Program-made: the position numbers and the translations under genes
DNA from: Eledone cirrhosa
Taxonomy: Eukaryota
Direction of reading: 5' to 3'
Assembly: GCA_964016885.1 (NCBI GenBank)
Contig: CAXHJY010000977.1
Coordinates: 1 to 53,401, forward strand
Length of the DNA: 53,401 nt
Shown here: in pieces, positions 3,375 to 51,654 of the stretch
How positions within the stretch are numbered: position 1 is the stretch's first letter
How the letters are laid out: each line of letters starts with the position of its first letter
The notes under the pieces: generated by a model
Database searches by the model: none
Seen by the model: only the letters and a program-made list of their open reading frames with translations
What the model was told of the DNA's origin: nothing

Positions 3375-3918
3375 ATATATATAAACAACTATCTGGTTGT
3401 GGAACCAACCAACCAACCAACCGGAAATTTATAAGTTTGTAGATTTGTAAATTTATAAATTTATAAATATATAATAAATTGAAGTGAAAGCAACTGGTGC
3501 GTGTGTTTCTTATTGGCAACATGACCCTCCCAAATATAACAATATCGGTTTCAACACACGATTTCAGATAAAGAATCTTGCTAAACAAATTCAGAAACGA
3601 AATATATATATATATATGTATGTATATGTATGTATATATATGTATGTATATATATGTATATATATGTATGTATATATATGTATATATATGTATGTATATA
3701 TATGTATATGTATATATATATGTATATATATATATATGTATATATATATATGTATATATATATATATATATGTATATATATATATATATATATATATATA
3801 TATATATGTATATATATATATATATAACGAAGGAAATGTGGTAAGGAACCAGGTGGACCATAACGCACCAAAGTACTCAATACTTGAGGTAGTAGAGTGG
3901 GTAATAGGAACCAGTAAG

Positions 3919-4012
3919 ACCCCGACAGCTGAGCTCAAGCCGTTTCGACGGCTAATTCTGGACTAAATGAAAATTTATCCTGGTATTTAAATAGCCGATC
4001 TTCTCAAGGGGT
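3919..4012 (-). ncRNA. Type I hammerhead ribozyme (U3-A8 core variant), inverted copy
   Basis: Reverse complement of 5067-5160. Confidence 0.75.
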
Positions 4013-5066
4013 AATTCCATATATGGTCAAAGTGATTGTCAAAAATCAGTAGTAATTCTGTGGTTGCAAATTAGTAGGGGAGATGGTGGCTAAACCTGCC
4101 AGTAGGAGAAAGAGGGGAGGGGGTGGAGTAGACCCAATCAAGCGTTGGTAGTGCCAGCTACAGCTGGGCATGAGGTCAAAGAAGATACATGATAGATTTG
4201 GCGGACTCCGCCCTTTATAGCAGTTGGCTTAGACCCCGGATACTTGCCCCCTTTTTCCGACCGCTCCCACTATTCTCTGTGCCCTCTATATTTCTTAGTG
4301 GCACTTATGCCTTATTTTTTCGTTTCAGTATTTCTTGCTTCGCTTTTCTTCTGGGCGTGGTTGATTCTGAATTTATTTCTCCGTATTCTACCTTTATTTC
4401 GTACGAACTTTCATGTAGCTTGTTTTAGATCTTTTAGTGTTAGCATTAGTATATATTTTTCTCGGTACTCTGAATTATTATCTCGTACAAGTTCACTTTG
4501 CTGCACTGGGTCGTTGCTGGCCCGGGATGGAAACCTTTATTGTTTATTTCGTGGTAGTCTCTTTAGTATTTTGGCCCCTTTTGTTGACCCGTCACCGTAT
4601 CATTTACGTACTTATACCTCTTAAAAGGGTCCTTGCCTAATCCGTCCCACCTAGTTCTTTTACTTATTTCGTTATTTCCTTATTTATTTATTTCTTTACT
4701 TCTTTCTTTCTTTCTTTATTTATTTTATTCTGCCTAACAATAGCCTGAGACCTAGGTGGTAGTATTTAATTTACTTTACTTTTTTCTTTACACTTATTTG
4801 CTTTTCTTCACTCTCAGTATTTTTTTCTTTCCTATTTCTACCCCCATTGTTCTACCTACCGTTCCGACTTCCTCCCCCTCCCCCTCCCCTGTATCTTCTT
4901 TGACCTCATGCCCAGCTGTAGCTGGCACTACCAACGCTTGATTGGGTCTACTCCACCCCCTCCCCTCTTTCTCCTACTGGCAGGTTTAGCCACCATCTCC
5001 CCTACTAATTTGCAACCACAGAATTACTACTGATTTTTGACAATCACTTTGACCATATATGGAATT

Positions 5067-5160
5067 ACCCCTTGAGAAGATCGGCTATTTAAATACCAGG
5101 ATAAATTTTCATTTAGTCCAGAATTAGCCGTCGAAACGGCTTGAGCTCAGCTGTCGGGGT
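5067..5160 (+). ncRNA. Type I hammerhead ribozyme (U3-A8 core variant, long loop II)
   Basis: ACCCC-TTGAGAA-GATCGGCTA...TAGCCGTC-GAAA-CGGCTTGAGCTCAGCTGTC/GGGGT; stem I ACCCC/GGGGT; near-palindromic stem III. Confidence 0.75.
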
Positions 5161-5175
5161 CTTACTGGTTCCTAT

Positions 5176-6092
5176 ATATATATATATATATATATATGTA
5201 TATATATATATATATATATGTATATATGTATATATATATATATGTATATATATATATATATATGTATATATATATATATATATATGTATATATATATATA
5301 TATATATATATATATATATGTATATATATATATATATATGTATATATGTATATATATATATGTATATATATATGTATATATATGTATATATATATATATA
5401 TGTATATATATATGTATATATATATATATATGTATATATATATATATATATATATGTATATATATATATATATGTATATATATATGTATATATATATGTA
5501 TATATATACATATGTATATATATGTATATATATGTATATGTATGTATATATATATATATATATATGTATGTATATATATATGTATGTATATATATATGTA
5601 TATATATATATATGTATATATATATATGTATGTATATATATATATATATGTATGTATATATATATGTATATATATATATATATATATATATATATATATA
5701 TATATATATGTATGTATATATATATGTATATATATATATATATATATATATATATATATATATATATATATATATATGTATATATATATATGTATATATA
5801 TATATGTATATATGTATATATATATATATGTATATATATATATATGTTTATATATATATATGTATATATATATATATGTATATATATATATATGTATATA
5901 TATATATGTATATATATATGTATATATATATATGTATATATATATATGTATATATATATATGTATATATATATATGTATATATATATATGTATATATATA
6001 TATATATATATATATATGTATATATATATGTATATATATATATATATATATATATATATATATATATATATATATATATATGTATATATATA
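5176..6092. repeat. (TA)n/(TATG) microsatellite
   Basis: Direct reading. Confidence 0.99.
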
Positions 6093-6149
6093 TAGAAAGG
6101 ATGAATGTAAAATGAAAGTGCTTTTGTTATTGTTAAAAAAGGAATTTAT

Positions 6150-6189
6150 TAGGTATTGACATATGTTTCTGTAACAGACCGAATACCTA
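6150..6189 (-). ncRNA. Core-degenerate hammerhead-like motif in 3' pLTR
   Basis: TAGGTATT-cggtctgttaca-GAAA-C ATAT GTC/AATACCTA followed by AATAAA; stems I and III intact, CUGANGA box absent. Confidence 0.4.
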
Positions 6190-6731
6190 TGTATCGCTGC
6201 TTGCGTAATCATATAATGTTAGCAAGTATTCGATAGCAAATGTATAATCAGTTGTCACTACTTCAGAGATTTTGGATAAATTGGATAAAATCAGAAAAAT
6301 TGAAGTATTTATATTAGTAAAAGAGGAAGGAACAGAGGGGATAGTATATGACAGATGGTAAATTAATTTACTGCTAAACAAGTATATAATGGGTTTCTAA
6401 TGAGAATACCATGAGTAAATCTAAATAAGAATTTTGGGAGTGCCAATTTTAATCTCTACTTGACCAACTGGACAGTGGACAGGGCTGGTCATTTGGTGCA
6501 GTAGTATTAATTATAAAGTGTCAATTGGGGAAGGGGGAGATTTCGATTGCTACTAAATAACATCAATGCTAGTAGCCAGCTGGTATATGCATTAGGGAAT
6601 TGAATCAAGAAATCAGAAATCTCATTTTATCTATAGCAGTTTGTATTAAAAGGTAAATAAATGATAGAATTAAGACTAATAAAGAATGTTAATATCTATT
6701 TTGACAATCAAACTGGGATAGAGACAGGCGT

Positions 6732-49568: not shown

Positions 49569-49632
49569 ATTTTGTCTGAAGAGGGCATACCGTATTTTTA
49601 ATATGATATCCCTGAAATATATATAATGAAAT
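49569..49632 (+). ncRNA. Minimal type I hammerhead ribozyme (family D)
   Basis: ATTTTGT-CTGAAGA-gggcata...atatccct-GAAA-T ATAT ATA/ATGAAAT. Confidence 0.75.
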
Positions 49633-49765
49633 AAATATGGTTTTATAAAATGTAGTTTCCATTTGTTTAATATCGTAAAATACTCCAAAACCTGTTGAGT
49701 GCTTTTAATATCAGTTATAAAATATTTACTCATTGTAACCCAACAATTTTAAATAAAACTTTTGC

Positions 49766-51005
49766 ATATATATATATATATATGTATATATATATATATA
49801 TATATGTATATATATATATGTATATATATATATGTATATATATATATATATATGTATATATAGATATATATGTATATATATATATATATATGTATATATA
49901 TGTATATATATATATATATATATATGTAGATATATATATATAATATATGTAAATATATATATATGTATATATATATATATATATATATATATGTATATAT
50001 ATATATATGTATATATATGTATGTATATATATATGTATATATATGTATGTATATATATATGTATATATATATATATATATATATATATATATGTATATAT
50101 GTATATGTGTATATATATATGTATATATCTATGTATGTATATGTATATAATATATATATATATATATATGTATATATGTATGTATGTATATGTATATATA
50201 TATATATATGTATATATATATATGTATATATGTATATATGTATATATGTATATGATGTATATGTGTATATATATATATCTATATGTGTATATATATACAT
50301 ATGTATATATGTATATATGTATATGTGTATATATATATATATGTATATATGTGTATATATATATATATGTATATGTGTATATATATATATATGTATATAT
50401 GTATATATGTGTATATATATATGTATATGTGTATATATATATGTATATGTGTATATATATGTATATGTGTATATATATATATATGTATATATATATGTAT
50501 ATATATATATATGTATATATATATGTATATATATATATGTATATATATATATGTATATATATATGTATATATATATATGTATATATGTATATATATATAT
50601 ATGTATATATGTATATAAATATATGTATATGTATATATATATATATATGTATATATATATATATATATATGTATATATATATATATATATATGTATATAT
50701 ATATATATATATATATATATGTATATATATATGTATATATATATATGTATATATATATATATGTATATATATATATATATGTATATATATATATATGTAT
50801 ATATATATATGTATATATATGTATATATATATATATATATATATATATATATATATATATATATATATGTATATATATATATGTATATATATATGTATAT
50901 ATATATATATGTATATATATATATATATATATATATATATATATATATATATATATATATATATATATATATATATATATATATGTATATATATATATAT
51001 GTATA
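49766..51005. repeat. (TA)n/(TATG) microsatellite
   Basis: Direct reading. Confidence 0.98.
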
Positions 51006-51081
51006 TATAAAGAAAAAGGGATGAAATCGAAAATGCAACTGAAGTCTTATTTTTTTAAAAAATATATATATTTATTTGGTT

Positions 51082-51119
51082 CCTTTACCGGTTTCGCAGT
51101 TCTTCTACTTTTCAAAAGG
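51082..51119 (-). ncRNA. Minimal type I hammerhead ribozyme (family H)
   Basis: As 44823-44860, with one C>U change giving a U-G wobble in stem II. Confidence 0.75.
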
Positions 51120-51214
51120 TGAGTTGAGATGGAGGGTCTGTGGTTTTTCTCACATCTGTGATGTGAGAAAAACCACAGATGTGGGAAAAACCACAGACCC
51201 TCCATCTCAACTCA

Positions 51215-51252
51215 CCTTTTGAAAAGCAGAAGAACTGCGAAACCGGTAAAGG
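51215..51252 (+). ncRNA. Minimal type I hammerhead ribozyme (family H)
   Basis: Identical to 44823-44860. Confidence 0.78.
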
Positions 51253-51654
51253 AACCAAATAAATATATATATTTAAAAAAAAAATAAGACTTCAGTTGCA
51301 TTTTCGATTTCATCCCTTTTTCTTTATACTTCCACTCGTGTAGGACACCTCGGTTATTTTTCATTTTGTAAAAAAAACCTCACTTTCTAATATGTATATA
51401 TATATATGTATATATAGATGTATATATATATATGTATATATATATACATATATATATATATACATATATATATATATACATATATATATATACATATATA
51501 TATATAAATATATACATATATATATATACATATATATATATATACATATATATATATGTATATATATATATGTATATATATATATATATATATATATATA
51601 TATGTATATATACGATATTAAATAAATGGAAACTATATTTATAAAACCATATTT

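Follow-up and report, generated by a model that had tools for sequence, protein, structure and literature searches.

Paired internal end-points of inverted Penelope-like element insertions in (TA)n tracts of Eledone cirrhosa point to two primed cDNAs

Penelope-like elements (PLEs) can insert together with an inverted 5'-truncated copy and a tail on one side only, as described for Pen2a_Av (PMC3846280) and set out in a general scheme (PMC8557442), and how they finish integration is called open in PMC8557442 and PMC11167929. For the PLE Poseidon PAc of Anolis, both target strands were nicked and extended in vitro, two internal starts of the reverse transcriptase (RT) bound the tail, and a dimer is predicted (PMC11167929). 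In L1 twin priming two nicks are used on one RNA, while a proposed dual priming uses two RNAs (PMC2837659). We report on a stretch of 53,401 nucleotides (nt) from Eledone cirrhosa (assembly GCA_964016885.1, contig CAXHJY010000977.1, positions 1 to 53,401), hereafter the window, in which eight PLE insertions with inverted arms lie inside (TA)n, and on related insertions sampled from the genome. The window is an entire unplaced, TA-rich contig (the genome comprises 3.0 Gb in 1,796 contigs), and its content is a nest of retroelements within long TA/TATATG tracts.

All eight insertions listed in the original prediction, which was based on the window sequence, are present, with ends at most 3 nt from where they had been placed. 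Each consists of two PLE 3' ends that stand head to head and are joined at their truncated 5' ends, the two arms being 94-100% identical. One arm stops at an internal TA, TAT, TATA, ATAT or ATATA (the short end-point, S), while the other continues to a long end-point (L), which leaves a tail of 34-166 nt on one arm only. The families are labelled C, C2, D, E, F, G and H, and both window copies of H use the same two ends, as had been noticed. The likeness to Pen2a_Av and the general PLE scheme covers the inverted 5'-truncated copy at the 5' end, the one-sided tail, junction palindromes, partial tandems, (TA)n targeting and a hammerhead in the pseudo-long terminal repeat (pLTR). That inverted pLTRs and short tails were already known in PLEs was thus rightly stated at the outset, and the architecture as such is published and largely not new. 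There are differences: in the available text of PMC3846280 and PMC8557442 the tails measure 30-40 bp and are described as optional or "often at one end", whereas here the tail exceeds that size in seven of the eight window cases and the pairing of S with L is, by count, near-obligate.

The count comes from one exact motif of 28-31 nt per family, located upstream of both end-points, such that the selection was blind to the type of end. Exact matches in the genome numbered 2,379 for H, 2,305 for F, 10,324 for D, 2,466 for E, 3,909 for G, 23,958 for C and 13,465 for C2, approximately 58,800 for the seven motifs together, and reversed-motif controls gave 0 matches for each of the seven families; motif pairs close together on opposite strands were nearly all oriented with the tails out. 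Loci were taken from the first 100 places listed per family, all on the largest contig (C1). The sample consisted of 30 loci reported per search and of fetched regions (40 for H, i.e. 25 pairs and 15 singles, and 20 for each of the others), a subset of the listed pairs, together with 30 more H loci from a tail-biased query; copies met incidentally in other loci entered the count as well. With identical F tails collapsed, this gave 591 distinct ends, 286 at S, 286 at L, 16 running past L into the body of the element and three atypical. The test named beforehand, fixed as opposed to random end-points, therefore came out in favour of fixed ones (588/591 at S, at L or running past L). Moreover, among 227 two-armed insertions, in a count that is blind to arms shorter than the search motif, 217 were S+L, two L+L and one S+S, three had an atypical end, and in four the outer end lay beyond the locus. 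In C2 there are two long ends, separated by 14 nt, of which the window copy uses the minor one (12 vs 21), and one of the L+L cases (locus L393) combines the two; L344 and L321 are true exceptions.

Tandem copies running into the body reveal that L sits at an internal TA motif, like S. The earlier view that the short arm is the one stopping at TA consequently holds for the short end but has to be widened to the long one. Specifically, 11 of 12 S and L sites in six families carry 3-7 alternating T/A bases (background 0.157). The PAc system is similar in that its starts lie downstream of the hammerhead, that two internal starts bound the tail and that both strands are extended; it differs in that the PAc starts lack homology to the target, whereas both sites here are TA micro-matches, and in that pairing within one insertion, joining of cDNAs and addition of repeats are not addressed in the available text of PMC11167929. 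Target-site duplications were considered as well and are unreadable within (TA)n. Taken together, it is very probable that two complementary DNAs (cDNAs) are primed at two fixed sites; the proposal that they are thereafter joined is borne out by the 217/227 S+L insertions, by either arm being the longer one, by locus-specific junctions and repeats at the ends (see below), and by the two internal RT starts on both strands in vitro (PMC11167929).

That the inverted arms are artefacts of fold-back reads or of the assembly has next to no probability. The window, being a whole unplaced TA-rich contig with at least two tract-centred inverted duplications, might raise this suspicion, and the junction of its F insertion (near 21655) is spanned by no public contig or read and is accordingly without independent confirmation. 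Yet a fold-back chimera cannot put a family-specific tail on one arm, the pattern recurs in over 200 insertions, of which the largest contig carries nearly all, and the arms differ by point changes. In addition, Illumina run X18, linked to the species by label only, gave nine rows of inter-arm joints, one of which (4 reads) equals the junction of locus L119. Finally, among 198 insertions checked we found four paralogous empty sites, in which both flanks are contiguous across a shorter TA tract. The filled tracts measure 190, 185, 60 and 77 nt and the empty ones 6-77 nt, a comparison of too few cases, and one open to bias in target choice. In most tracts of the window the G-type polarity is the same on both flanks of each insertion, which is expected if the insertion hit one array.

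Among 189 insertions, the S arm was the longer one in 40, often by more than 1 kb (the window insertion 19323-23593 included), the L arm was longer in 55, and the arms were equal (within 20 nt) in 94. These lengths bear on a scheme, in the spirit of PMC3846280, in which a single L-primed cDNA, folded back at a palindrome, serves as its own template and is joined to the other target end at an internal TA. It would account for S+L pairing, shared variants, palindromic junctions and equal arms, and one-armed copies are mostly L; but a copy cannot outrun its template, as it would have to where the S arm is longer, tail-only L partners exist, S ends carry repeats of an initiation type, and in vitro the RT starts at both sites (PMC11167929). 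We therefore consider such self-priming very unlikely. As far as their available text goes, PMC3846280 and PMC8557442 prefer antisense self-priming or nuclease resolution, whereas our arm data prefer two primed cDNAs.

Of 162 junctions scored, 100 had microhomology, 21 were blunt and 41 carried filler, often templated from nearby; most are locus-specific. Spread of the mini-palindromes as one copied unit was for this reason rejected as the main route, and only a few palindromic junctions recur (L068/L085 in H; L293/L302/L303 in G), where such spread is possible. The joining of inverted pieces by microhomology or end joining is shared with L1 twin and dual priming (PMC2837659). As described there, L1 twin priming differs in having poly(A) as the first primer, a variable second site and non-overlapping pieces, and in being a variant event. 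Here, two arms are what is usually formed, from sites that are both fixed and internal, and only nine cases, in which an S arm is joined to an inverted tail-only piece, are classical twin-priming products. The contrast with L1 drawn in the original prediction, i.e. that the 3' region is duplicated, stands, since the arms overlap and both sites are internal TA motifs.

The ends themselves carry traces of how synthesis may have begun. At F short ends, 1-4 extra copies of the last 7-9 bases were present in 11/35 cases, compared with 0/34 at the same site inside long arms, and at E short ends a CT run was expanded in 20/29 (up to 31 units; shorter in four) vs 0/39 internally; for G it was the long ends that had repeats (9/37 vs 0/4 internally). 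End repeats are present also in insertions with 0 mismatches between the arms, which fits an origin during insertion. Replication slippage beside the (TA)n tract may be an alternative source, but the family specificity speaks against it. Slippage at the initiation of target-primed reverse transcription is known for L1/Alu and the I factor (PMC3415434), and telomerase and DRT10 add repeats (PMC12632851); the likeness, as far as the available text of these papers shows, is that a weakly paired primer re-anneals and a short stretch of template is copied again. The PLE case differs from these slippage systems in its internal sites, in an RT related to telomerase, in that either arm may be affected and in being family-specific.

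These repeats, together with the end classes, also bear on whether both arms started long and one tail was lost, be it through resolution by a nuclease, an idea put forward in PMC8557442, or through a TA-mediated deletion at a later time, gene conversion having made the arms alike. The position of S at a TA motif beside an unstable tract, and variants common to both arms, agree with this. Later deletion, on the other hand, predicts L+L and S+S classes, seen in 3/220, and a trend with age, yet pairs with identical arms are already S+L; 207 differences private to one arm have been kept, non-overlapping parts of F insertions share a lineage, and an obligate one-sided resolution in the course of insertion, though compatible with the sequence, leaves the repeats at S ends unexplained. 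Tail loss is in our view highly improbable.

Given two primed cDNAs, the question is whether they have one template. Variants shared with other loci were present in both arms at 218/279 sites within insertions (66/68 in F, 41/44 in E, 79/112 in C, 18/28 in G, 10/19 in H and 4/8 in D), compared with 1,134/11,479 (10%) between insertions. Another 77 variants, each confined to a single insertion, are present in both of its arms; non-coding mini copies (e.g. at L031 and L082) are among the carriers of such variants. Strand-biased RNA editing was considered as their origin and is not general: the pattern was C>T in 6/6 for H, and the 77 include 17 C>T, 10 G>A and 15 A>G. In F, the 5' region present in the S arm only and the tail present in the L arm only follow the same subfamily (rho 0.86), and this link is also seen in E (rho 0.45) and C (rho 0.41), the pairs being non-independent; since these F parts do not overlap, conversion between arms is not needed there.

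The arms also agree in length class. Arms of equal length exceeded the permutation expectation in 6/6 families tested, and mixed short/long pairs were seen in 1/50 for H, 1/41 for D and 2/23 for G, where 22.1, 6.4 and 6.6 were expected (4/114 overall vs ~35). Arm ends fell within 13 nt at a family hotspot in 37/86 (H), 62/78 (D), 19/44 (G) and 5/26 (E) cases; a TATA-like box precedes the hotspot by 25-29 nt in H, D and E. The hotspot may thus mark the 5' end of the RNA, judging from the sequence. The hammerhead cut site was tried as an arm stop and rejected, with only ~3/86 H arms there and no hotspot.

Alternatively, two RNAs, usually from one source locus, might sit on an asymmetric protein dimer, with one subunit always at S and the other at L, i.e. 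dual priming at fixed sites. The dimer predicted for PAc (PMC11167929) agrees with this, strand displacement would not be needed, and S+L pairing, either arm being longer, most of the variant sharing, and arm differences at an H T/A run and in family C are accounted for. An extra rule is however needed against S+S and L+L, and the near absence of mixed pairs, equal arms at locus-specific positions in F, E and C, and private variants in both arms of the non-coding mini copies are unpredicted; we regard two RNAs as unlikely. On the choice that the original prediction had left between two templates and re-use of one, the shared variants, subfamily link and length class tend towards a single RNA or, at the least, a single source locus. 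A model in which both nicked target ends prime on the same RNA and the two cDNAs are then joined is accordingly the one that we favour, with reasonable though limited confidence.

Several points weigh against this one-RNA model, or against parts of it. Sharing of variants is also expected with one source locus or subfamily active at a time and is no proof of one molecule. At 61/279 shared-variant sites the arms are discordant (33 of these in the older family C), and G lacks the subfamily link (rho -0.17), which in H is weak (rho 0.25, not significant). In H, a T run next to an A run (window 44876-44893 and 43238-43255) has a boundary that shifts (2-9 T) while the sum stays at 12-13 in 108/122 arms, possibly owing to dislocation-type polymerase errors, and this boundary is unlike between the arms in 31/38 insertions, near the rate expected by chance. 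The G hotspot has no TATA-like box, and F and C have no sharp arm-end hotspot. Repeats are almost lacking at the short ends of H, D and C (1/59, 0/50 and 0/43). One-armed copies are common, with L in excess of S (~24 vs 6 abutting TA; for H partly biased by the tail-biased query). The tails contain many TAT/ATA sites at which no end falls, so that pairing alone cannot select sites and protein or RNA fold must pick them. Furthermore, the model has to assume that strand displacement can proceed through a fresh RNA/cDNA hybrid, and the anole PAc enzyme, according to the available text of PMC11167929, uses starts without homology to the target and both sites on both strands without bias.

Under the one-RNA model, the GIY-YIG nuclease would nick both strands of the (TA)n tract, as it does in vitro with the anole PLE on AT-rich DNA, and the two 3' TA ends would pair, inside the RNA and downstream of its hammerhead, with two UA motifs (S and L) chosen by the protein, a pairing for which the micro-matches observed provide the basis. 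One RNA offers S once and L once, which would force S+L. The weakly paired primer may slip, its last 2-9 bases being recopied telomerase-style before productive synthesis, as the end repeats suggest. The L-primed enzyme would then displace its way through the S-primed hybrid and thereby duplicate the 3' region; stopping early, it would leave an S arm and a tail-only inverted piece, as in L1 twin priming. Both cDNAs would end at the same RNA 5' end (the pLTR start site, giving palindromes of 190-500 bp) or randomly on long RNAs, and after trimming they would be joined head to head via short or palindromic microhomology or templated filler, in keeping with the junction types. Each cDNA probably primes the second strand of the other. 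The original prediction had seen the cause of the two-sided structure in the self-complementarity of (TA)n, and this we abandon: Pen2a_Av has the same structure with a 9-bp target duplication (PMC3846280), the anole enzyme does without homology when it primes on the two strands (PMC11167929), and with equal primers alone S+S or L+L should make up about half of the insertions, contrary to the count. Self-complementarity provides the micro-matches without causing the structure.

The families have features of endonuclease-containing (EN+) PLEs. Open reading frames (ORFs), or pieces of them (D, G and H), in long copies of 7/7 families encode a catalytic DD motif and, at the C-terminus, YIG/YVG. 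In Pfam searches, RVT_1 and GIY-YIG scored above the cut-offs only for a related element at 40949-42914, and the E, F and H window fragments had no match. Partial tandem repeats (pLTRs), seen as copies running from tail to body, occur in 7/7 families (e.g. L071, L252, L279, L306 and L347); at L374-L378, four C2 units form a tandem array with a period of 4.15 kb. Motif scans of C, D, E, F, G and H predicted hammerhead-like cores with paired stems upstream of the short end in 6/6 families, including the U3-A8 variant known from PMC4209133; among the best 150 of 545 Rfam rows for the window there was no hammerhead, these rows being below-threshold matches to microRNA hairpins. The Hydra clade is characterized by RWK, DKT, a CxCX5C linker, a CxH motif, (TA)n insertion and a generally short length of <3 kb (PMC8557442). 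D, F and G have RWR/RWK, CxCX5C and CxH motifs, with DKT in F and G and not found in the D pieces; the tandem units of F and G, ~4.1-4.2 kb, are above the Hydra length, a descriptive and non-diagnostic trait. In E, H, C and C2, a CX2-5CxxC linker (CX4CxxC in E and H) lies upstream of GIY-YIG, with DKG in E and H and DKS in C and C2. E and H are 57% identical, C only 22-24% to E/H; judged by these motifs, E and H appear Neptune-like, and C and C2 a third, distant type. The labels Neptune-like and Nematis-like are in part assumed on our side.

Along the window, the family C insertion (3046-3601) has an inverted S arm at 3046-3161, an L arm on the + strand with a 60-nt tail (3542-3601), and a canonical hammerhead-like core at 3335 (+). 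The D insertion (3826-5172; Hydra-type motifs) has its L arm on the - strand with an 81-nt tail (3826-3906), its S arm at 4890-5172, a blunt junction and hammerhead-like cores at 4007 (-) and 5072 (+); at 5072-5155, the long loop of stem II in the hammerhead motif contains both the arm-stop hotspot and its TATA-like box, and an RNA starting at this hotspot would be without the 5' half of the ribozyme. In the E insertion (14869-17219; Neptune-type motifs), the inverted S arm covers 14869-14972, and the L arm (+ strand, 34-nt tail at 17186-17219) carries an RT-thumb/GIY-YIG fragment, a 3' untranslated region and a hammerhead-like core at 17038. The F insertion (19323-23593; Hydra-type motifs) has the S arm on the - strand as the longer one, with an ORF end at 20851-21657, the L arm at 21667-23593 with a 166-nt tail (23428-23593), a 13-bp duplication at the junction (21655-21686) and hammerhead-like cores at 19403 (-) and 23347 (+). 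For C2 (40386-40794), the S end is at 40386 and the L arm, with the minor long end and a 44-nt tail, at 40637-40794. The larger H insertion (43137-44931; Neptune-type motifs) has its L arm on the - strand with a 65-nt tail (43137-43201) and an ORF end at 44366-44520, its S arm at 44521-44931, 3-nt microhomology at the junction, one private variant common to both arms and hammerhead-like cores at 43306 (-) and 44827 (+). The G mini-palindrome (47432-47942; Hydra-type motifs) consists of an L arm on the - strand with a 99-nt tail (47432-47530) and an S arm to 47942, with a junction near 47735 and hammerhead-like cores at 47629 (-) and 47844 (+). Finally, in the H mini-palindrome (51009-51389) the S arm (51009-51158) and the L arm (51176-51389, 64-nt tail) both end at the H hotspot, with an 18-nt templated duplication at 51160-51197; another H mini-palindrome, at L056-L059, has a 74-bp core and is duplicated in inverted orientation.

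Other PLEs in the window include a further hammerhead-bearing Hydra-like family (9622, 49493-49762 and 51614-53130), with short ends at 9622 and 51614 and an end at 49762 that is ~85 nt longer, and a Hydra-like PLE at 6095-9601 with a direct partial tandem (6095-6556/9146-9601), no inverted arm and an ORF at 7089-9014 on the minus strand. An inverted pair at 27033-27896 and 45416-45885 has a degenerate hammerhead-like core, 108-124-bp repeats and (AC)n between the arms. Two inverted duplications are centred on tracts. Positions 18695-19101 and 23594-24000 are ungapped inverted copies (393/407 identical) of TA tract and 33 unique bases, situated at the 5' junction of a CR1-like element with a switch in tract polarity at ~23654, and look like a (TA)n fold-back apart from PLE insertion. 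At 27933-29816, a 1.9-kb palindrome centred in a TA tract, with a polarity switch near 28870 and inward-facing unique arms of 56 bp, is either a true fold-back or a local assembly error. The same TA array holds copies of long interspersed nuclear elements (11085-13961, 31353-33622, 23991-26276, 1448-2326, 2613-2744 and 45894-46748; RVT_1 and endonuclease matches), which we take to be CR1- and RTE-like from their motifs; two CR1-like copies are 98.8% identical.

Already published (PMC8557442, PMC3846280, PMC11167929) are inverted arms with one-sided tails of 30-40 bp and palindromes at the junction, insertion into (TA)n and hammerheads, as well as an RT that has two internal starts, extends both strands and is predicted to form a dimer. 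In the published EN+ PLE literature, older subscription papers lying beyond the search, we found no obligate pairing, origin from one RNA, run-off at a pLTR start site or addition of repeats. Not found in print are hence the near-obligate S+L pairing, the TA micro-matches at both end-points, either arm being the longer one, arms that share source variants and length class, short arms ending 25-29 nt below a TATA-like box, and telomerase-like repeats at priming ends only. The insertion architecture itself is thus known for PLEs; what is added are rules that narrow down how it can arise. Near-obligate S+L pairing with a shared source and stop point turns the "inverted pLTR plus tail" oddity into a rule that is testable in vitro. 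It is possible, though we consider it doubtful, that PLEs of at least three lineages integrate by default via obligate twin priming on one RNA, with two base-paired internal sites, read-through of the first hybrid, mutual priming of second strands, telomerase-style repeats at each start, and UA slippage that lengthens the targeted (TA)n tracts. The pairing rule would also offer a route of second-strand synthesis without RNase H, and the addition of repeats at internal primer sites is a functional link to telomerase, the closest relative of these enzymes. With ~58,800 motif matches, the mechanism would make tens of thousands of short palindromes beside (TA)n tracts in this genome, which annotation could take for miniature inverted-repeat transposable elements or assembly errors.

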